A stretch of DNA of 64,000 nucleotides from the IMG/VR virus record IMGVR_UViG_3300020183_000010; one strand, given 5' to 3'. The position numbers and the translations under genes were made by a program. Positions 6,426 to 43,758 of the stretch are shown in pieces. Position 1 is the first letter of the stretch, and each line of letters opens with the position of its first letter. The notes below the pieces were generated by a model, which made no database searches, had not been told where the DNA came from, and saw nothing but the letters and a program-made list of their open reading frames with translations. The DNA is from a virus.

Positions 6426-6926
6426 TCACAATCTATTTATGGAATCTGCTATGGACTTTACTCCTTTTATTTCTTGGTAATAGTCAAGGTTTTTTCTACC
6501 GTATGAGTTTTTAATCTCCTCGTGCAAAAATCTTTTTTCGACCATTATTTGTATAATAATAGATAGGCTAGATCGTCCATCTGAAGGGGCCTTTGCTTTC
6601 GATTCCTGAGAAATTTCTTCGCTGGCTTTTCCTTTTAGTTCTGATATTATTTTTTCTGTTATCCCACCTTTAGTAATGGAATCATTATAATTTAGATACT
6701 CTTTATTTTTATCATCTATATTTTGTCTTAGAACATCTATTTTTTTTTTGTCATTCTCGTTATCACTATTTTTTAAAGAATTTATTTCTCTGTTTATCGA
6801 GTTAATAGATTCGGTAATACCCCTAAATTCTTTAACTTTGGAATTTATTGATTTTTCTATCAGTGAAAGCTGTATAAGATCGCTTGATATGTTTGCGTAA
6901 CTGTGTATTTTTCTAGACTCTGCCAT
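6426..6926 (-). CDS. Hypothetical coiled-coil protein
   Basis: 166-aa ORF in the operon. Confidence 0.6.
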   Translation of the reverse strand: MAESRKIHSYANISSDLIQLSLIEKSINSKVKEFRGITESINSINREINSLKNSDNENDKKKIDVLRQNIDDKNKEYLNYNDSITKGGITEKIISELKGKASEEISQESKAKAPSDGRSSLSIIIQIMVEKRFLHEEIKNSYGRKNLDYYQEIKGVKSIADSINRL

Positions 6927-29085: not shown

Positions 29086-30753
29086 TTAGATTTCCGCTGC
29101 TGCTTCCCCGCCTGCTGCTGCGTCTCCACCTGCTGCTGCGTCTCCGCCTGCTGCTGCGTCTCCACCTGCTGCTGCTGCGTCTCCTCCGGTAGCTCCGGTA
29201 GCTCCAGCTTTTCCTTCCTCTTCCGCTTTTTTCACATAGGACTTATTTAACTGTATATCCTCATAAGATAGATCTAGCCATCTTTCTATCATAAAGTCCT
29301 GGTCGAAGAACTGAACCTCTTCCTCATTTACTGTTTCTTTGACTTCCCCTAGTGCAGTAATAAAATCAATTCTTTTTATTAACTGCTCTATCTCTCTTGA
29401 TTCACCAAATAAATTATCGCTTTCAAACTTAACACCTATTTGACTTCTAAATTCAGAATCATTCTTAAGGTCTGGAAAATCTAGACACATTTGAATCCAA
29501 AGAGGCTTAACTATTATTTCTTGGAATATTGATCTTAGCCTAGTTATAAACTTAGCAAATCTTACCTCGTCTCTTTCCGCTCCGTCAGCACCTGTTTTAA
29601 AAACGTTATTTGATCCAACACCAAATCTAGAAGAAAATCTGTTGTAAGGTATTTTAGAATCTTGTCTTAACTTGTTGTAAAAATAAACAACTGAATCCAT
29701 AATGTTTAAATTCGGACCTTGTGCGTTAAGTGTTTCGATTTTAACAGATTCACCTCCCTGCTGCGGGAATAAATAATTTTTATAAAATTGTATATCCGGC
29801 CTACCATTTATTGATAATTCACCGGAAGTTGTATCTAATTTAATATCTTCTTTATACACAGACATTAATTCCCCTAAGGTTTCTTTAGCTTTTTGTGGTG
29901 CTTTGCTACCAATAGGAACAGTCATTTTAATTCTGTATTGTGCATTCATGACATTCCATATTATTCTAGAATGCTCCATAATTTTTAGTAGGTTATAAGA
30001 TCTTATTAATCTTTCTGTATAAGAAACCCTAGATACGGTGTTTGCTTTAGCATATGATATGTAGATAACCTGTGCATCTAAAAGTTTTCTTTGTCTAACA
30101 GTTTCTCCGTAATACTGCCACCAAATTGTTTCTCTAGTTCCGCCCGGTTTCTTTTCGACCGCTGGGGTTAAACTCACTGGGTCTAATTCCTTAAATCCTA
30201 TTATTTCTTTCCCGTCGTTTGAATAGATTATTTCAAAAGCTAAAAATCCCTCTACTACTAATTGTCTAAAGTATTGCCAAGCAGTTAAGCCATTAGCAAA
30301 ATTGTGTAAAACATATAGCTTTCTGAAATTTTTTCTCATAGCTTTTATGACGTCATCTTTGAGATCCATGCTCATTAGAGCTGGATGACAAAAGAAATTC
30401 TTTTCGTCATAAACTATAGCTTCGTCACATATTGTATCTAAAATATATTCGATCTCAGCGTTTAAAGCAAAGGTTCTAAGAAAATCTCTCTTGAATGGGT
30501 AATCCTTATCGAAATATGCTATATATTTTCTATTAGATGTATCCTGTGCTGCTATACTGTATATAAAATCCTCGTCCGAATCTGTAAATCCGAACCTTTC
30601 TCTCATATTAGCTTCAGATACACCTATTGCCATAGAGTCTTGGATAACCATATCCTTATACTCCATACCAAAAGATCCAAGACCACTAATAGTTTTTAAT
30701 ATCCTTGAGATATTGGGATTTATTTTTCCTAAGTTGTCTAAAAATCCAGCCAT
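29086..30753 (-). CDS. Portal protein (T4 gp20-like), copy 2
   Basis: EIEYILDTICDEAIVYD, YNLLKIMEHSRIIW, SKIPYNRF, ERDEVRFAKFITRLRSIF. Confidence 0.88.
   Translation of the reverse strand: MAGFLDNLGKINPNISRILKTISGLGSFGMEYKDMVIQDSMAIGVSEANMRERFGFTDSDEDFIYSIAAQDTSNRKYIAYFDKDYPFKRDFLRTFALNAEIEYILDTICDEAIVYDEKNFFCHPALMSMDLKDDVIKAMRKNFRKLYVLHNFANGLTAWQYFRQLVVEGFLAFEIIYSNDGKEIIGFKELDPVSLTPAVEKKPGGTRETIWWQYYGETVRQRKLLDAQVIYISYAKANTVSRVSYTERLIRSYNLLKIMEHSRIIWNVMNAQYRIKMTVPIGSKAPQKAKETLGELMSVYKEDIKLDTTSGELSINGRPDIQFYKNYLFPQQGGESVKIETLNAQGPNLNIMDSVVYFYNKLRQDSKIPYNRFSSRFGVGSNNVFKTGADGAERDEVRFAKFITRLRSIFQEIIVKPLWIQMCLDFPDLKNDSEFRSQIGVKFESDNLFGESREIEQLIKRIDFITALGEVKETVNEEEVQFFDQDFMIERWLDLSYEDIQLNKSYVKKAEEEGKAGATGATGGDAAAAGGDAAAGGDAAAGGDAAAGGEAAAEI
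29095..29205 (-). repeat. About 18-nt tandem repeats encoding the GATGATGG(DAAAGG)n portal tail
   Basis: cctgctgctgcgtctcc[ag] repeated about four times. Confidence 0.85.
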
Positions 30754-30759
30754 TTTATT

Positions 30760-32379
30760 TTATAGTGTAAATTCGTCTCCTCCTGTAGCTCCTTCAGCTC
30801 CTGTAGCTCCCTCTGCTCCGGTAGCACCTGCTTCAGCTTCAGCTGCTTTTTTCTTTTCCTCAGCTGCTTTTTCTTTAAATTTCCTGTTAGTTGTTAAATC
30901 TTGTCCTTTAACACCTAACCATCTATCTACTAAGAAATCCATACTGAAGTATTTTTTCCCTTGAGAGTTCATTAGAGCAGATATTTTAATTATTTGATCC
31001 TTTCTAGCTGTTAGAACCTCCATTTCTTTTGCTTCTCTGAACATGTTCTCTTTAACATAATCCAAACCAAACTCTGACTTTATTAAATAATCTTTTTTAA
31101 GATGTGGAAAATCCAAACAGAATTGAACCCATAAAGGCTTCATTAGTATCTCTTGATATATTGATCTTAACCTGTTTATAAATTTACCGAACCTAACCTC
31201 CTCTTGATCTAATCCCTCTGCGGTAAAAGTAATTGTTCCTTCGGATCCTGACTCCTCTCTACCGAATCTAGTAGCAGGTATTTTTGAATCCATTCTAAGT
31301 TTATTTGCAAAGTACTTAAGAACTGTTGTATCAGAGAATGCTGTAGCATCTCCTCCACCTGGTAAAGGTTGTATATCTGGGGTTCCGTTAGGAGAGGAAG
31401 GCATTAAATAGTTCTTAAAAAATTGAATCTTTGGTCTTCCGTCTACACTTAATTCCCCACTATCTGTATTAAGTCTTATATCCTCTTTATATATGGACAT
31501 TAGTTCTCCTAATGTCTGTTTAGCTTTTTGTGGGGATCTCGTACCAATAGGAACCGTCATTGCCATCCTGTATGATGAGTTCATTACGTTCCATATAATT
31601 CTGGTGTGCTCCATTATTCTAAGTAGATTAAATGATCTAATCATTCTTTCACAATAACTAACTCTGGATGATGTTCCTCCACCTTTAGCATAACTTATAT
31701 AAATTATCTGCGAATCATATAATTTTCTAGTTAATGATGGATTATCCGGATATTGTATCCATATATCGGTAAAACTCCCGTCAGGTTGTGATTCTACTGT
31801 TGGTATTAGTGACCAGGGATCTAATTCTTTAAACCCTACAATATTTTTACCTTTCTTGTCAAATACTATCTCAAAAGCTATATTTCCGTCTACTAGAAAT
31901 TTTCTGAATAAATGCCAAGCTGATATATCTTGATTAAATCCGAAAAGATTGTAGATCTCCTTATATCTTTTTTGGACTTTCTCATATGTTTCATCGTCGA
32001 CATCGTCATGCTGCATAAAAGAAAAATAAGCCCAGAAATTCTTTTCGTCATAAACTATTGACTCGTCGCATATAGTATCTAAAATAAATTCTATTTCTGG
32101 GTTTTGTGAAAATCCTTGGAGATAATGTCTTTTATTTTTATAATCCTTATCGAAATAAGCTATATACTGTTTAGTGGTTGTATCTGCTCTTCTTAAACCA
32201 AATAAGAAAGATTCGTCTTTTATACCACCTTTTTGTAGGAACTGAGCTTCTGTTATACCTACCGCTTGTGAGTTTTTTATGACAAGATCCTCGTAGGCCA
32301 TACCAAAACTGCCCACTTTCTTTATATTATCTATAATAGAACTAAAGAATGATTTTTTTTCGTCAGTAAATCCAGCCAT
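30760..32379 (-). CDS. Portal protein (T4 gp20-like), copy 1
   Basis: PEIEFILDTICDESIVYD, FNLLRIMEHTRIIW, SKIPATRF, EEVRFGKFINRLRSIY. Confidence 0.88.
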   Translation of the reverse strand: MAGFTDEKKSFFSSIIDNIKKVGSFGMAYEDLVIKNSQAVGITEAQFLQKGGIKDESFLFGLRRADTTTKQYIAYFDKDYKNKRHYLQGFSQNPEIEFILDTICDESIVYDEKNFWAYFSFMQHDDVDDETYEKVQKRYKEIYNLFGFNQDISAWHLFRKFLVDGNIAFEIVFDKKGKNIVGFKELDPWSLIPTVESQPDGSFTDIWIQYPDNPSLTRKLYDSQIIYISYAKGGGTSSRVSYCERMIRSFNLLRIMEHTRIIWNVMNSSYRMAMTVPIGTRSPQKAKQTLGELMSIYKEDIRLNTDSGELSVDGRPKIQFFKNYLMPSSPNGTPDIQPLPGGGDATAFSDTTVLKYFANKLRMDSKIPATRFGREESGSEGTITFTAEGLDQEEVRFGKFINRLRSIYQEILMKPLWVQFCLDFPHLKKDYLIKSEFGLDYVKENMFREAKEMEVLTARKDQIIKISALMNSQGKKYFSMDFLVDRWLGVKGQDLTTNRKFKEKAAEEKKKAAEAEAGATGAEGATGAEGATGGDEFTL

Positions 32380-32975
32380 TAGACTTTTGAATTTTTATTA
32401 TATATCTCATTTAACTGGGTCCCTTCAATTGACCTAGTATCCAGATATATTATTCTAGTCCAATCTTCGAAAGGAATTTCCACAACATCACGAACTTTTT
32501 TTAAATCCCATGATCTATATGCGTGTTTATATGGTATTCCCTTCAGTATGATATCCATTGTTTGATAATCTGTTTTAAAAGGAATCTGATCCCTGCCCTC
32601 ACCTCTTTCTTGCCTTTGTATATTTTTTTCTAACTGATCCTGAAATACACTTTGTACCCTCTCAAAAAATGATAATCTAAATACTGGGGGAATAAGTATT
32701 AAATCTAATCCGTTAAAAAGATTTTTCTTTTCGTAATTATCATATCCAGTGAAAAAAATTACGGGTCTTTTGTTTATGAATTTCTTACCATCTTCTAATT
32801 TGTCGTTGTACGCAAAAGAATAAACCTTTCCTTGTAAAAAGTTTAATGGGTTAAATTGTGAGTTTTTATTTACATAATTTTTTACCCAGTGCATAAATGC
32901 CTCTTCTGGTAAAGAAGTTAGCCCAGAAACAGAAAATTTATATTCCTCGAATTTTTTTCTAAATGGCTGTATCAT
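32379..32975 (-). CDS. DNA end protector (T4 gp2-like)
   Basis: GKVYSFAY...RPVIFF...GLDLILIPPVFR...EIPFEDW. Confidence 0.7.
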   Translation of the reverse strand: MIQPFRKKFEEYKFSVSGLTSLPEEAFMHWVKNYVNKNSQFNPLNFLQGKVYSFAYNDKLEDGKKFINKRPVIFFTGYDNYEKKNLFNGLDLILIPPVFRLSFFERVQSVFQDQLEKNIQRQERGEGRDQIPFKTDYQTMDIILKGIPYKHAYRSWDLKKVRDVVEIPFEDWTRIIYLDTRSIEGTQLNEIYNKNSKV

Positions 32976-33457
32976 CTCATTATAAAGCTTTCGTTGATAG
33001 CACCGAATTTATATCCTCTAGATTCAGCAAATCTAGTTGCTGCTTCAAACTTAGCTCTATTTGTTATCCACGTCTTAAGTTTTTCGTTATAAGATCTTAT
33101 CTTTTTTTCTGTTAGATTTCCGACGGGCTCTTTGGGTCTTTTATGAAGTGCATACTGATCTTCTGGTTTTATTTCTATTAACCAGTTTTCTAAAATTTCG
33201 CCCTTCTGTACTTGTATGTAGTAATCTACAAAATATTTGTGCTCTTTTTTGTCTATAGGACTCCAATAGGGAATTCCTGTTGGTTCTGAACTCCATTTTG
33301 TTATGTTGGGATTAATATCACAATATTGACAAAATTTCCTTTCCCAGGAGCTTCTATATATTATATTATATATGTCCCCAATATACTTTTCCGGATTAAC
33401 TGGGGAATACTTACCAGATTTCCAGTTCCCATTGGGCTTTAGTTTTTTTATGTCCAC
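32972..33457 (-). CDS. Head completion nuclease (T4 gp4-like, TnsA fold)
   Basis: NPEKYIGD, IYRSSWERKF, WSSE, YFVDY, LIEIKP, NRAKFEAA. Confidence 0.9.
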   Translation of the reverse strand: MDIKKLKPNGNWKSGKYSPVNPEKYIGDIYNIIYRSSWERKFCQYCDINPNITKWSSEPTGIPYWSPIDKKEHKYFVDYYIQVQKGEILENWLIEIKPEDQYALHKRPKEPVGNLTEKKIRSYNEKLKTWITNRAKFEAATRFAESRGYKFGAINESFIMR

Positions 33458-33459
33458 AA

Positions 33460-33816
33460 TTATACATTATAATTGGAATTCTCCTCTCTTACTATTCTAG
33501 AAAAAGGAATAGTCTTAGGGGATTTTGGTGGATGTATTTTTTTCCATCCTTTTTTCATTCCATTGTGTGCTATCTGGGATATAAAAGCAAAAGGATTATC
33601 AGACTTAGCTGGATCATATCGATTCCAATATTTAACTAAGTCTTCCAGTCCTGAAGATATGCAATCTTCTCTGTCTTCATTATCTCGGTAGGAATGTGTC
33701 TTGGACATACCGTTTACTATGAGAGTAAACATCTTAACGGTCTCATCTGTTAATTGACCTTTTTCTTTGCTTTCTAGAAGAGCTCTTTTTAGCTCTTTGT
33801 TTTTTACGTATATCAT
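33460..33816 (-). CDS. Late sigma factor (T4 gp55-like)
   Basis: YVKNKEL, YDPAKSDNPFAFISQIAHN. Confidence 0.8.
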   Translation of the reverse strand: MIYVKNKELKRALLESKEKGQLTDETVKMFTLIVNGMSKTHSYRDNEDREDCISSGLEDLVKYWNRYDPAKSDNPFAFISQIAHNGMKKGWKKIHPPKSPKTIPFSRIVREENSNYNV

Positions 33817-34067
33817 TCTTGTTCGGGAATATTATTTTGGAGCTTTTCTATCTGTTGTTCTAAATTAACCCTTAATTCTTCCAAATTTTTCCTCGAATTT
33901 CTAATTGTGTCTATACCTATCTTACCGTTTTCTTCACTAGAAGTTTCTAATTCTTTAATCTTTTCTAGACAATTTTTCAAATCATCTAAAACAAAATTGA
34001 GTCTATTGCCAACCCCCTCGTCTGGGTCTTTGGCAACAGACTCATTTATTGATTCCTTAATTACTAC
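33813..34067 (-). CDS. 84-aa ATG-less ORF in the -1 frame of the 772-aa gene (putative frameshift extension; missing from the ORF track)
   Basis: VVIKESINESVAKDPDEGVGNRLNFVLDDLKNCLEKIKELE...IPEQE*. Begins at the A AAA AAG site; its TGA overlaps the gp55 ATG (ATGA). Confidence 0.75.
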   Translation of the reverse strand, partial: VVIKESINESVAKDPDEGVGNRLNFVLDDLKNCLEKIKELETSSEENGKIGIDTIRNSRKNLEELRVNLEQQIEKLQNNIPEQE

Positions 34068-36382
34068 TTTTTTTTTGTTTTAGGAGCGGAAGCAAATCCT
34101 GCTACAGAATCTTTCTCTGCAAATCTTTTCCCGTTCTTTTTGCTGTTTCCGTGTGCGTCTGCGAAGTTAAAGTCGTCTTCATCCTCCATAAACTTTTTAG
34201 ATTTTTCAGCTTTACCCTTAGGAGCTTTTTCTATGTGAGAATTTTTTTGGCTTTCCTTAAGAGTAGCTAAATTCATATTTTTAAGATCCTGGATAAATTT
34301 AGCTGATCCTTTTAATGATGCACTTGGTGCTTTAGCTAAATCAAGATTTTCTAAATCGTCTATGAATTTTTTTCCACTTCCACCTTTTCCTTTGCTAGGA
34401 AGATCTGCCATATTAGCAGTTTTTGATTTAACCCCCCTTCCTGTTAAAGGAGCCGATTTACCGCTCTTAGGTAAACCTGCCATAGTTCCTTTATCGTTGT
34501 TTATAAACTTAGGAGAGGATCCAGTTTTTTTGTCTGGAGCTTGGGCCATATGTTTTTTAGAGAGACTCTCAATTCTAGAATCTTTGTGAGATCCCCCTCT
34601 ATTTCCTGGAGCGTTTGCAAAGTTCTGGTTAGACTCGTTTGTGTATTCTAAATCCAAGTCTGGGGCTTTAATATCGTAACGATCAATCTCATCCTCTAAA
34701 TCTTCAACATCTGAGAAGAAGTATTCCCCGGTTTTACCTTCTTTGAAAAGGATAGTATATGTTTTAGAGCTTCCGTCTACTCCAATAACTCTACCTTTGT
34801 TACCGTTTCTTTTAATTCTAACCTCTGTATCGATAGGATAACCAAGATCTTCATTAACTGAAGGAATTTCTTTTGCTTTATTTTCAAATCTAGATATCTC
34901 TAGATTTATTTGATTCCATCTATCTTGAAGAGAAGATATCTCATCATGTATACTTTCTTCTAAAGCTACAAGTTCTTGCGATTTAGTAAGTAAAGGATTT
35001 TCCTTCTTAGCTATATCTAATTTTCTAAGTTGGTTTTCTAGAATTTCTACGTTTTTAATGATCTCATTTTTATCATTCTTCATAACGCTTAAGAAAGCTT
35101 GTTCTCCTTCTAAGAATTCTGTTAATGATTCAGAAATATCATATTTAATAAAATCTTTAATGATATTAATTGCTTGCGTTGCGTTAGCTTCGTAGATTTT
35201 GTTTAATCTCATAGCTGGATTAACTGTTTGTACATAAATTCCAGACTCAGTTTTAAAGATATTAGCTTCTACGTTTTCGTATACCTTAGATCTTATTTTC
35301 TTTCCAAAATCTATATCAACAATATTATCAGCATTCTTAGCTACGAAGACAGCTTTATTGATTTTGTGATTAGAGCTTTCTAATAGGTTATTAGTACTAA
35401 CACTAACAGCAACAGGAAGATCTGATTCATTTATTCTTTTTCCGTCAAAATAAACCTCCTTAGATTCATTAGTAAATACAATCTCTACCTTATTATTTCC
35501 TATGTTTAATGAAATCTTATTGTTATCTATTTTAACGTCTCTATCGCTAATTATTTGAGCTTGATCTGCAAGTTCGTCTGGTACTTCGTCCATGTTACAT
35601 TCTTGTAGAACACCAGACTCGTGATCAATCTTCAGGAATTTGCCAGAAGAATAAAATAATGTTTCACTTTCGTTAACCGTTATAGGTGAGTAAAGGTTGT
35701 CTATTTTACAAACATTGTTATCAAACCCAACGTGGAACTTACTAGAGTTATCATTTTCGTAAAGAGATAAAAAGCTAACTAAATTTCTAACTAAAGGATT
35801 AAATCCAAAGCTTTTTAATCCATGGATAAGAGTGTCACTAGATTTATTTTCAGAAAGTAACCAGTTTTTCATTTGTCCAGTAGCATCGGAAAAAAGCTCT
35901 CTCCCTGGTGCATTTTTAATGGATTCATATGCTTTAACGACTTCGATTTCTCTTCTTCTATTTTCGAAAATAGTATTTAGATTTTCTAAAACAGGAGCTA
36001 CTGAATTTTCCCAAGAGAAAGATTTAAGATCGTTAAATAGCCCTTCGATTATAAAAGCTTCAGAAATACCTTTTCCTAATAGTAAGTGCTCGTATTTTTC
36101 AAGTAAGATCTTACCTGCTGGAAGATCTCCTAGTGAAGAATTTTTTAAAGCTGAAACCGTATTAACTAGTCCAAAACTAAAAACAACGTTGTTTTTTGGC
36201 TTTGTTGAAATGTCAGGCATTTGTGATTCTTTAAGCATTTGAGCTGTTGAACCGCTAAGGAAAGAAGATGCAACAGGTTTTTTCTCTGACCCTAAACCAG
36301 CCCATTCTCTAAGAGAATCTGCAGCGTTTTTAGAAGTCTCCATATTTAATCTATTGATCTCTGGATTAATATTTTTTTCCAT
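34064..36382 (-). CDS. Large late protein, possibly prohead core/internal protein
   Basis: GATATATA upstream; many [ILV]-x-E-S sites like prohead-protease targets; coiled coil, SH3-like segment and C-terminal basic A.AP...KF repeats. Confidence 0.55.
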   Translation of the reverse strand: MEKNINPEINRLNMETSKNAADSLREWAGLGSEKKPVASSFLSGSTAQMLKESQMPDISTKPKNNVVFSFGLVNTVSALKNSSLGDLPAGKILLEKYEHLLLGKGISEAFIIEGLFNDLKSFSWENSVAPVLENLNTIFENRRREIEVVKAYESIKNAPGRELFSDATGQMKNWLLSENKSSDTLIHGLKSFGFNPLVRNLVSFLSLYENDNSSKFHVGFDNNVCKIDNLYSPITVNESETLFYSSGKFLKIDHESGVLQECNMDEVPDELADQAQIISDRDVKIDNNKISLNIGNNKVEIVFTNESKEVYFDGKRINESDLPVAVSVSTNNLLESSNHKINKAVFVAKNADNIVDIDFGKKIRSKVYENVEANIFKTESGIYVQTVNPAMRLNKIYEANATQAINIIKDFIKYDISESLTEFLEGEQAFLSVMKNDKNEIIKNVEILENQLRKLDIAKKENPLLTKSQELVALEESIHDEISSLQDRWNQINLEISRFENKAKEIPSVNEDLGYPIDTEVRIKRNGNKGRVIGVDGSSKTYTILFKEGKTGEYFFSDVEDLEDEIDRYDIKAPDLDLEYTNESNQNFANAPGNRGGSHKDSRIESLSKKHMAQAPDKKTGSSPKFINNDKGTMAGLPKSGKSAPLTGRGVKSKTANMADLPSKGKGGSGKKFIDDLENLDLAKAPSASLKGSAKFIQDLKNMNLATLKESQKNSHIEKAPKGKAEKSKKFMEDEDDFNFADAHGNSKKNGKRFAEKDSVAGFASAPKTKKK

Positions 36383-36443
36383 TTGTAATTCGCTTTTTTA
36401 GTATATATCTTACTTAATTAAACTTTCTATGTATTTTTATCTC

Positions 36444-40611: not shown

Positions 40612-41235
40612 TCAATCATTAAAAGTTAAATTAACACCAGGAAACATCTCCCTAACTTTTAATCTTGCTCTCCTAATTCTTGTAGCTATAGCTCTTTTTT
40701 TCATTCCGTACTTATCAGCTATCTCTTGATATTTCATTCTTAATATCTCCCTATCAAAAAGAATATCTTTATAAATTTCTGGTAGGTCTTTCATCTTTTC
40801 GATGACATTTTCATACAAATCTTCCATTTCGTCGTTTTCAGTTGTTATATAATCAAATTCCGCTTCTAAAGTTACAGGAGATGAGCTTATAGTTGGATAT
40901 ACAGATTCTTCCGATTCATCATTACTCCTTACTACTTCCTGTATAATTGGTAAATATCGATCCTCGTTCTTTTTAATTCCCAAAGATTCATTTCTTGCTA
41001 TATTATAAACCCATGTAGAAAAATTACCCCTTGAAGGATCATATTGGGATATCTTTGTCCATATCTTTGCCATAGTGTTGGAAACTGCATCCTCTGCTGA
41101 TTCTTGCTCTATCAATATAGATTTACAATGATTTATTAATCCTGGTTTAATCCTTTTGTATAATTCAACGAAGTCTTTCTCCGATGATGTTCTCATAAAA
41201 CTCTCTGCCAATTCCTGAATATTTTTTACTGCCAT
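40612..41235 (-). CDS. ECF-type sigma-70 factor
   Basis: AEDAV, YDPSRGNFSTWVYNIARN (region 2); LPEIYK..., MKYQEIADKYG...TRIRRAR (region 4). Confidence 0.9.
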   Translation of the reverse strand: MAVKNIQELAESFMRTSSEKDFVELYKRIKPGLINHCKSILIEQESAEDAVSNTMAKIWTKISQYDPSRGNFSTWVYNIARNESLGIKKNEDRYLPIIQEVVRSNDESEESVYPTISSSPVTLEAEFDYITTENDEMEDLYENVIEKMKDLPEIYKDILFDREILRMKYQEIADKYGMKKRAIATRIRRARLKVREMFPGVNLTFND

Positions 41236-41985: not shown

Positions 41986-43758
41986 CTAATGAAACTTTTT
42001 TCCGTTAGGAATAACAATTAGGGGATTTTTTAACGTATTATTCAGCTGAGTTAGTAATGTAACCATAGATTTCATGTTATCTCCTAGCTCTTTCATAGCT
42101 TTATCTTGCCCCTCACTTTTTTCTTTGTTTTCCGTTTCGTTCTGTTGTGTTCCTTCGGTTTTTACCTCTGAAGATGCCTCCGTTTTTTTGTCTTCTGTTT
42201 TATTCTGGGTAGTAGTTGGTGAAGATGTATTTGTCTCGCTCTTCTTTTCCTCAGTTTTATCAGTAGTCGGAGTATTTACACTAGATAAATTTTGTGTTGT
42301 TGTTTCTTTTATAGGCGTATTAGTGGTAGAAGTTTCAGTTTTTTTATCAGTATTTGTAGAAACTTTCTCATCCAGCTTAGTTTCTTTCTTCTCTGTCTTA
42401 GATTTATTTCCAGTATTTCCCTTTCCTTTTGTGTCGGTAGACTCTTCTTTTGGTTTTGTAAATCCTAGTTCTTCTAGGTTCTTATCTACTGCGGCACTTC
42501 CTGTTGTTATACCTTTTCCTTTTCCTTTATCTTTTTCGTCCCCACCCTCTCCTTCTTTTTTGTCTCCTTCTTTAGCCGGCATTTTTAATCCCAGCATTTC
42601 TAGTATTCCTTTATTTGATTCGCTAAGAGCTGGTGTTGTATCTTTACCTTTTTTACCTTTATTGTCCCCTGTTTTTACATCTTCCGCTTTTCCTTTGGCT
42701 TCATCTTTTTTCTCTTCCGGTTTTTTCTCCTCTAATTTTTGTTCTGCTGTTTTAACTTCAGCCCCTTTAGTCTCTTCTGTCTTTTTAGTCTCTTCTGTCT
42801 TTTTTTCTTCGACTTTTGCTTCTTCTTTTTTTTCCTCTGGCTTAGGAAGATCTCCTGTCTTTTTTTCTTCGACTTTTGCTTCTTCTTTTTTTTCCTCTAT
42901 TTTAGTTTCTTCTGTTTTTGTCTTCGCCTCTTCTTTTTTTGCCTCTTGTGCAGCATCTTTTATTACATCCTCCGCTTTTTTCCCTTCTTTTTTTTCTATT
43001 AGCTTTTTTATGTTATCATCATATGCTTTTGCCATTTTGGTAACACTCTCATTGGTAAATCCTTCTGCTTCTAAAACTTTCGCTAAAGCAGAAATTATAG
43101 CCATATTTTCTGGGGTATATAAAATAGGAGCATATTGGCTAGCAAGTGTGGATTCCTTAACAGTAAAATACTGTAATAATTTAGAAAAATTATCAAGAAG
43201 TGGCTCGAATTTATTTTTTTCGTCCTTTATCTTACTATTAAAATCGCTTTTAACATCTTCATATAAGTCAAAATTCTTTACGTCACTAATACCTAAATTG
43301 TCTACTATATCGGTAACCCTACCGTCTCTAAGTACTAGTGCATTACCTATCTTATTCTCAGCAGCTTCCTTAGACATTTCAAAAATCTCCTTGCCGTCTA
43401 TACTTTCCCCCTTTTCTAATTTCCTTCTTATTTTGTCTTTATTTGATCCTCCGTCTGAATAAGCTTCCGAATAATAGATAAGGCTTGGATCATAAGCAGG
43501 ATCTAATCCTTTTACGTTTTTTTCAAATGAATCGTCGTAAAATTTATTAGCTTCTTTTATAACTTGATCCGCTGATTTTTTTTTCTTTACTAAATCCTCG
43601 TCTATTTCTTTTCCTGTAGCCCTCGCAGTTACCCCGTCACTTTCGATCATTGCTTTTTCCTGTTCCTTGTATTTAGCTCTATCAAAAGCACCTTCGGATG
43701 ATTTAAATACCGGAAATTCGGATCCTGTTCCCTCTTTATTATCTTTTTCTTCTGCCAA
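41986..43758 (-). CDS. Lys/Glu/Thr-rich low-complexity protein at the tape-measure/hub position
   Basis: Follows the gp26/gp51-like genes; internal duplicate EEKKEEAKVEEKKT; TTG start. Confidence 0.5.
   Translation of the reverse strand: MAEEKDNKEGTGSEFPVFKSSEGAFDRAKYKEQEKAMIESDGVTARATGKEIDEDLVKKKKSADQVIKEANKFYDDSFEKNVKGLDPAYDPSLIYYSEAYSDGGSNKDKIRRKLEKGESIDGKEIFEMSKEAAENKIGNALVLRDGRVTDIVDNLGISDVKNFDLYEDVKSDFNSKIKDEKNKFEPLLDNFSKLLQYFTVKESTLASQYAPILYTPENMAIISALAKVLEAEGFTNESVTKMAKAYDDNIKKLIEKKEGKKAEDVIKDAAQEAKKEEAKTKTEETKIEEKKEEAKVEEKKTGDLPKPEEKKEEAKVEEKKTEETKKTEETKGAEVKTAEQKLEEKKPEEKKDEAKGKAEDVKTGDNKGKKGKDTTPALSESNKGILEMLGLKMPAKEGDKKEGEGGDEKDKGKGKGITTGSAAVDKNLEELGFTKPKEESTDTKGKGNTGNKSKTEKKETKLDEKVSTNTDKKTETSTTNTPIKETTTQNLSSVNTPTTDKTEEKKSETNTSSPTTTQNKTEDKKTEASSEVKTEGTQQNETENKEKSEGQDKAMKELGDNMKSMVTLLTQLNNTLKNPLIVIPNGKKFH

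Follow-up and report, generated by a model that had tools for sequence, protein, structure and literature searches.

Efficient slippage of bacterial RNA polymerase (RNAP) has been shown on runs of nine A or T residues, a length sufficient to span the RNA-DNA hybrid (review PMC5009743), and in C. rodentium tssM1, where a poly-A tract lies directly before the stop codon, two required length variants are made by transcriptional slippage (PMC4256274). For ribosomal frameshifting, PMC4066793 includes proven sites without an established stimulator, for example A_AAA_AAC of IS1, and a stimulator is thus not obligatory. Here, we analyse a 64,000-nt window of the IMG/VR record IMGVR_UViG_3300020183_000010, an uncultured lake phage, in which a late open reading frame (ORF) of 772 amino acids (aa) ends in a run of nine A residues (A9) with stop codons directly behind it, while the -1 frame stays open up to the gene for a gp55-like sigma factor. 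All gene callers left the resulting ~250-nt "gap" between the two genes empty. We consider it likely, judging from related sequences, that the A9 run is a site of programmed recoding and that the hairpin downstream of it is a transcription terminator; the recoding, taken by itself, appears very likely on the comparative evidence.

The coordinates of the recoding locus all refer to the minus strand. The 772-aa ORF (P0001; 34064..36382), a gene without family assignment whose 0-frame product is the proposed short isoform, ends with ACA AAA AAA AAG TAG TAA, giving the protein end …TKKK. The A9 run (34068..34076), conserved in length, holds A_AAA_AAA and A_AAA_AAG in phase; the latter occupies 34073-34067 in the 0-frame and is overlapped by the former, and the gene ending and its A AAA AAG heptamer are exactly as a first-pass annotation of this DNA had described them. 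Directly after the run come two tandem 0-frame stops (34061..34066), TAG at 34066-34064 and TAA at 34063-34061. Just 5' of the run, a TAA at 34080..34082 closes the -1 frame, an arrangement also present in several relatives, and entry into that frame is therefore restricted to 34079-34064, essentially the A run. The -1-frame extension (33813..34067) opens at GTA (34067), runs for 84 codons and ends in a TGA at 33815-33813 that overlaps the ATG of the gp55-like gene (33816-33814) as ATGA. It contains no ATG or GTG, and in-frame TTG occurs only at extension codons 30 and 62; the earlier description of an 84-codon frame without ATG that closes on the gp55 start is borne out. Under standard decoding, the late protein would end at 772 aa, and a minority of the products would pass into the -1 frame at the A9 run, gaining a short linker and a two-helix hairpin to reach ~856 aa. 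As for the length of the run, the junction was identical, with zero differences, in independent Logan contigs from four lake-water runs, and the suggested check of A9 against A10 thus returned A9 in four independent assemblies, besides A9 or A10 in ~60 distinct related loci.

A homologue search with the 772-aa protein returned >120 protein clusters and 48 IMG/VR loci, the relatives being found on lake-water metagenome contigs of up to ~430 kb. The homologues of clade I, to which the window belongs, are nearly all 760-785 aa long; 42 of their loci include the 3' end of the gene and represent 23 distinct junctions. The same layout recurs at all 42: a run of A9 or A10 (the latter in L025-27), one variable base (G/C/A), an immediate 0-frame stop (TAA/TAG/TGA) and a conserved -1 peptide, and the identical signal is seen in five further distinct loci (~28 in total) and five metagenome contigs. 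Within the clade, identity of the extension ranges from 93% down to 45%, and no start codon is conserved in it. The first ~8 linker codons vary freely yet never include a stop, indels come in multiples of three, and in the C-terminal, helical part the ratio of nonsynonymous to synonymous polymorphism (pN/pS) is 0.36. At every locus, the 5'-most A of the run takes the third, synonymous place of its codon (for T, S, A, R, V or L) and yet never changes, and the position of the stop is fixed by an equally invariant third-position A in the first extension codon (GTA/CTA/ATA).

The pattern extends beyond clade I. Clade II, ~30% identical to clade I and with an extra N-terminal region, retains A9-(C/G/A)-TAA/TGA in ~28 distinct loci, and its -1 extension of 50-59 aa is unrelated (LSRNFYFAPK…KAPTGK…acidic tail); searches with BLAST and a hidden Markov model did not find the clade-I extension in clade-II loci. 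The adjacent 0-frame stop is retained in all lineages but one. In that clade-II lineage, represented by two loci of identical sequence (L080:3650-3800 and L087), the A9 run stands in another codon phase, GAA AAA AAA ACC, and the 0-frame stop, no longer next to the run, is reached only 12 codons further downstream, with the -1 extension intact. The slippery heptamer is in 0-frame phase in nearly all loci, L080 among them. In a maximum-likelihood tree, proteins ending in KKK or KKN flank the deepest split and the exceptions are nested inside these groups. Two of these exceptions have a broken A run: the gene ends GGA AAG AAA AAG AGT AAG TAA in the P0098 lineage (L104-106; 14 contigs) and …AAA AAT AAA TTA AAA TAA in the P0093 lineage (L125). 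The homologous DNA downstream is in both stopped in all three frames, leaving remnants such as "NLETS" and "IGI", and the P0109/P0110 lineage (L049) has neither A run nor extension; P0121 and P0119, the latter with a protein ending in DDKY, were left out of the locus comparison. Such joint loss of run and extension is expected if the extension is translated only via the A run. Discordant loci, either with an extension but no A run or with an A run but no -1 ORF, were absent, and no in-frame fused gene occurred among the ~60 distinct loci or the >120 protein clusters. An A10 fusion, fused homologues and an independent start at the internal TTG had each been named as grounds for rejecting the idea; we looked for all three and found none. 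The comparative pattern therefore answers all three objections, be it sequencing error, a simple fusion or independent initiation, and the heptamer, stops and stem, whose conservation the annotation had proposed to check, are kept across clade I, with A9-N-stop shared by clade II. A minor, C-terminally extended isoform made through the A run, as originally suggested, is thus supported by a run, a stop and a start-less -1 ORF that are conserved and lost together.

The AlphaFold2 (AF2) model of the extension consists of a disordered linker followed by a helical hairpin (H19-47/H52-78; predicted local distance difference test, pLDDT, 76), in agreement with the helical tail foreseen for the long form. 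The extension has no Pfam or PHROG family match, and a search with it among longer proteins, weak evidence in itself, found none that carries it as an in-frame fusion. Beside these features, a tetrapeptide (I/L/V)-x-E-S is conserved ~9 residues past the slip site (window ~34041-34052, minus strand; extension residues 6-9), with the variants INES, IIES, ISES and LAES and, in L037, ISEH. It resembles the cleavage motif of the T4 prohead protease, L/I-x-E. The conservation may also act at the RNA level, as the E-S codons double as the 5' arm of the hairpin.

That hairpin, a terminator-like stem of 15 bp with one G-U pair, lies inside the extension ORF (33998..34044; arms 34044-34030 and 34012-33998), with the U tract UUUUGUUUU (33988..33996) directly 3' of it. 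Stem and U-rich run are present as first described, starting 22 nt after the heptamer, and in clade-I relatives the stem begins 16-19 nt past the stop. The 111-nt segment around the hairpin folds at -35.5 kcal/mol (z = -5.7 against shuffles), and the stem, at -28.5 kcal/mol versus -10 to -16 kcal/mol for the others, makes this the strongest combination of hairpin and U tract on the coding strand of the window; other intergenic terminators of the window (45302, 38781) share the design. RNAalifold on the raw MAFFT alignment recovered the outer 8 bp only, rows of L037 and of sequences with indels being misaligned, and we used per-sequence folds and an explicit structure count. By this count, the stem forms in every clade-I locus (92.9% of cells paired, against 21-38% with the 3' partner slid), and two of its pairs covary, compensating GC<->AU through G-U. 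L037 builds a comparable stem and a U7 tract (CUUUUUUUG) from a different sequence encoding different residues, and a U-rich tract is present in all clade-I loci including this one. The arms of the stem use GAG and CTC, codons atypical for the genome, in 21/22 and 23/23 sequences. An 11-bp pairing between the A run and the U tract, seen in the minimum-free-energy fold of the window, is unsupported by covariation in the relatives and we regard it as incidental.

Elsewhere in the family, the hairpin and the recoding part company. In clade II, the 90 nt that follow the A run form no significant structure (z ~0), and a canonical terminator of 11-17 bp with U7-8 comes immediately after the extension stop; the lineages without recoding (L104, L125) keep a hairpin and U tract 20-28 nt after the stop, and L049 also has terminators between the homologue of the 772-aa gene and gp55. 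A 3' stimulator would be expected ~5-9 nt past the heptamer, and the nearest stem is 22 nt downstream. The hairpin had been proposed as a stimulator of frameshifting, which is not supported, given a clade that recodes with no structure nearby and lineages that keep the hairpin with no recoding; the fallback idea offered with it, a terminator or attenuator, fares better. Because the hairpin covaries, outlives recoding and is absent near the clade-II A run, it is, as far as sequence alone can tell, not a frameshift stimulator but the intrinsic terminator that closes the late transcription unit. Read this way, every form of the locus has a predicted terminator separating the big late gene from gp55, and the -1 ORF crosses it only in clade I. 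There, with the terminator lying inside the extension ORF, the long isoform would come only from transcripts that read through it.

As to the machine that slips, RNAP acting on the A9 tract is the route that we slightly favour and give about an even chance; it would add one A to a fraction of the transcripts. What is conserved is the length of the run, perhaps independently of codon phase and of the flanking base, although just one lineage (L080/L087) has it in a different phase. We favour RNAP because the run is never below nine A in any recoding locus, its synonymous 5' A is invariant and the base following it is free, because of the phase variant, and because stimulators are absent; the sequence upstream of the slip site, GCTCCTAAAACA, holds no Shine–Dalgarno (SD)-like element. 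RNAP and ribosome could also act together, and we think it rather unlikely that the route is neither of the two.

Several observations weigh against the picture drawn so far. Nearly all loci have the classic heptamer in phase, which favours a ribosomal site, and the invariant synonymous A keeps the 0-frame stop adjacent, which a "shifty stop" explains directly. Elsewhere in the window, A9 and A10 runs sit in frame within ordinary ORFs, so that an A9 run is not obviously harmful. The Logan contigs support A9 but cannot reveal a minor A10 species. The extension has been lost at least twice and is hence dispensable in some lineages, and if the terminator is efficient, little long isoform would be left. 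The runs in question, both on the minus strand, are an A9 at 43576-43584 (…VKKKKSADQ… in ORF 41986..43758) and an A10 at 6740-6749 (…DKKKIDVL… in ORF 6426..6926), and neither of these two other long A runs of the window has the recoding signature. If RNAP slips efficiently on A9, the two genes should give some truncated product.

A purely ribosomal route would have tRNA-Lys slip back on A_AAA_AAG (or A_AAA_AAA) with the adjacent stop in the A site and without help from an RNA stimulator; it is a credible contender, although on the doubtful side. Tolerance of in-frame A9 and A10 runs elsewhere in the window speaks for it, and in E. coli a Z_ZZN tetramer or an X_XXZ_ZZN heptamer is enough of a -1 motif (PMC4066793). 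A heptamer, however, needs only six or seven A's, and none of the ~60 distinct loci falls below nine; the extra 5' A is synonymous, and the last base of the heptamer varies (G/C/A). The L080/L087 lineage has no adjacent stop and has the run in another phase. Moreover, the stops are mostly UAA, an efficient terminator and so ill-suited to a mechanism built on slow termination. Finally, the site has neither a 5' SD-like element nor a 3' stimulator, and the genes here are SD-poor, with an SD-like motif upstream of just 3 of the 52 window ORFs of at least 100 aa. Of the ribosomal -1 frameshift first proposed for the locus, recoding at the A run has stood; its status as sole mechanism has not, since a run of at least nine fits RNAP slippage equally well or better.

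A further question is whether the recoding controls the genes downstream. The gp55-like small sigma gene (33460..33816, minus strand; 118 aa; PHROG 234, E 3e-16; Pfam Sigma70_r2) overlaps the extension stop, as ATGA, TAATG or TGATG, in all 23 distinct clade-I junctions, and given this conserved overlap some termination-reinitiation at its start is plausible. In clade II and in the L049, P0098 and P0093 lineages, gp55 is free-standing, and its expression therefore cannot generally depend on shifted ribosomes. The initial proposal that only shifted ribosomes reach gp55 fails on the same ground, the gene standing alone and having to initiate by itself in clade II and in the lineages lacking the extension. 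The motif GATATATA at 36402..36409 (minus strand), ~20 nt upstream of the 772-aa ORF, is a putative late promoter; of its 12 matches across the window, 10 are on the coding strand, and the next one downstream, at 32406-32399, precedes the first portal gene, none lying between 36402 and 32406. The counts of GATATATA and of AAAC-N16-18-TATAA in the window are within shuffled expectation, and the promoter assignments rest on position. The spacing suggests that gp55, gp4 and gp2 rely on read-through of the terminator or on another promoter. With a match to AAAC-N17-TATAA at 34501-34527 (minus strand), ~430 nt 5' of the A run, the 772-aa ORF itself contains a sequence from which gp55 could be transcribed without the late promoter.

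The terminator could also be gated by the recoding itself. A ribosome stopping at the TAG would leave the terminator free to form, and one continuing in the -1 frame would trail RNAP through the stem and block termination. How often recoding occurs would thus determine how much of gp55, gp4 and gp2 is transcribed and, by coupling, translated. We think this unlikely, though it has points in its favour: the clade-I stop lies 16-19 nt before the stem, just outside the footprint of a terminating ribosome, the terminator is within the -1 ORF, the gp55 overlap holds in 23/23 distinct junctions, and there is no late-promoter motif between 36402 and 32406. On the other hand, clade II places its terminator after the extension and has gp55 free-standing, the lineages without recoding retain both terminator and gp55, whose expression is thus not shift-dependent, and the scheme presumes a transcription-translation coupling in the host that is hypothetical. 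The strict version, in which only -1-shifted messages or ribosomes cross the terminator and load the gp55 start, and the slippage rate sets both the isoform ratio and the dose of sigma, gp4 and gp2, seems to us more improbable still. If it were true, slippage at a single poly-A tract would feed forward into the amounts of late sigma, gp4 and gp2.

Explanations that do without slippage during expression survive less well than programmed recoding. Phase variation at the DNA level, with the length of the A9 run changing in replication and an A10 subpopulation encoding a fused 856-aa gene, is very improbable: homopolymer tracts are mutational hot spots and contigs are blind to minor variants, yet no A10-fused genotype appears in the ~60 distinct loci or >120 protein clusters, and the loci that do have A10 (L025-27 and L074) still hold the stop in frame. 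Even less can be said for the extension as an independent gene with a non-canonical or internal start, such as the TTG at codon 30, and an incidental A run. In-frame TTGs exist, and initiation of the Bacteroidota type needs no SD; however, 9 of the 23 distinct sequences have TTA or CTT in place of the codon-30 TTG, there is no conserved alternative start, the conserved residues upstream (E-S…P-x-E-G-x-G-N-R-L-x-F) would go untranslated, and decay of the ORF coincides exactly with loss of the A run. Some sequencing platforms make errors in homopolymers, but a sequencing or assembly error or a recent pseudogene, hiding a simple 856-aa ORF, is effectively refuted: the same layout recurs across two deep clades in dozens of assemblies made independently from many samples, and the four Logan assemblies are identical at the site.

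The 772-aa protein itself resists classification. Its AF2 model (pLDDT 69) is folded over residues 65-565 and disordered over 570-772; the folded core comprises helical domains, beta domains, a coiled-coil hairpin (415-505) and a Tudor/SH3/KOW-like barrel (514-566). We found no Pfam or PHROG family and no usable ESM Atlas match for it; a profile search of the PDB gave only hits at E>0.1, and Foldseek against the PDB gave none at E<=1e-3. VIA-align and Foldseek matches of the model were limited to generic coiled-coil (helical) hairpins and Tudor/KOW-like barrels, and the BFVD matches are all uncharacterised proteins, one of them from Tenacibaculum phage PTm1. Among GenBank phages, blastn found no match to the gene and tblastn one weak match, in an unannotated, uncultured phage of 462 kb. 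The label "head protein" that the gene had been given is consequently unsupported, no family or fold match backing it; given a motif resembling a late promoter and neighbouring genes for head completion and the portal, a role in the virion or its assembly is plausible. Lys-rich repeats make up the disordered tail (~570-772; 34064-34670, minus strand), and a hydrophobic-x-A-P-x-(G/K)…K-F-I motif recurs in them. The short isoform terminates within one such repeat (…FASAPKTKKK), and the clade-II extension adds two more of the x-A-P-x repeats, plus an acidic end.

The window is AT-rich (G+C 33.6%), and every gene in it is on the minus strand. Its T4-like core includes two tandem gp20 portals, gp4, gp2, the gp55-like sigma, sheath, terminase, clamp loader and ligase, and it further encodes collagen-like fibres and a sigma factor of the extracytoplasmic function (ECF) type. 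The gp4-like head-completion gene and the gp2-like DNA-end-protector gene (32379..33457) follow the gp55-like gene in the same orientation, a synteny maintained across all clades, and in the relatives a portal gene comes directly after gp2. The portals at 29086-32379 (minus strand) are full-length, diverged paralogues in tandem, of 539 and 555 aa, each matching Pfam Portal_T4 at E ~1e-61. The second sigma factor, at 40612-41235 (minus strand), is an ECF-like protein of 207 aa (PHROG 1740), and the presence of two such factors, gp55-like and ECF-like, hints at a multi-step transcription cascade. There is no tRNA gene within the 64-kb window. The regions upstream of the 52 ORFs are A/T-rich, many with a TATATA-like motif 15-25 nt before the ATG. 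Together with the near-absence of SD motifs, this suggests a host of the Bacteroidota type and short leaders; ribosomes of Bacteroidota disregard SD sequences (PMC10798248). Because of the SD-poor ORFs and the fold-level relatives in Tenacibaculum phages, we take the host to be probably of this type, and the phages to be abundant, uncultured, freshwater jumbo phages, T4-like and probably with Bacteroidota hosts.

If our reading is correct, current annotation has missed a deeply conserved recoding event. The family forms an unusually clean natural system, in which one slip signal comes with either of two unrelated extensions, run and extension have been lost together twice independently, and one lineage has the run in another phase; this variation could separate slippage by RNAP from slippage by the ribosome in hosts that initiate independently of SD. 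The combination of A9-N-stop and a long, start-less -1 ORF is a usable search pattern for similar sites. We found no earlier description of a terminator inside a recoded ORF that ends on the start codon of a sigma factor.

Among known systems, tssM1 of C. rodentium, with A11 directly before the stop (PMC4256274), and dnaX of T. thermophilus, with A9 (PMC5009743), come closest to the phage site. As at the phage site, at least nine A's stand at the end of the short ORF, in tssM1 directly before the stop; both genes yield two length variants sharing the N-terminus and need no RNA stimulator, again like the phage site. The phage site differs from the two in being part of a late phage gene, in the great depth of the family and in its two unrelated extensions, and slippage at it is inferred; furthermore, slippage truncates the T. 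thermophilus product and would extend that of the phage. E. coli dnaX and elements of the IS3/IS911 type have the identical in-phase A_AAA_AAG, with the -1 frame giving an alternative C-terminus as here. Nevertheless, the conserved unit at the phage site is nine A's and not the seven of the dnaX/IS-type heptamer. In E. coli dnaX, an SD-like element lies upstream and a hairpin ~6 nt downstream, whereas the phage site has no SD and its only hairpin, with a U tract behind it, is 22 nt away, is kept where recoding is lost and is missing from clade II.

In its proposed outcome, the locus resembles T7 10A/10B and lambda G/GT, late genes with a major short and a minor C-terminally extended form, conserved in relatives. 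It belongs to a different family, with no homology to capsid proteins or tail chaperones and with a different slip signal and, unlike in those two systems, the extension spans a terminator and ends on the start codon of a sigma factor. With trp-type attenuators and intrinsic terminators, the phage element shares a stem containing G+C, an A-rich 5' flank and a 3' U tract just past a stop codon, and by analogy this geometry of stop and stem would let translation influence the formation of the hairpin. In contrast to trp-type attenuators, no alternative antiterminator structure was identified at the phage site. Trp leaders differ from it in position as well, the phage element lying within a recoded ORF at the 3' end of a long gene, where regulation by translation is hypothetical.

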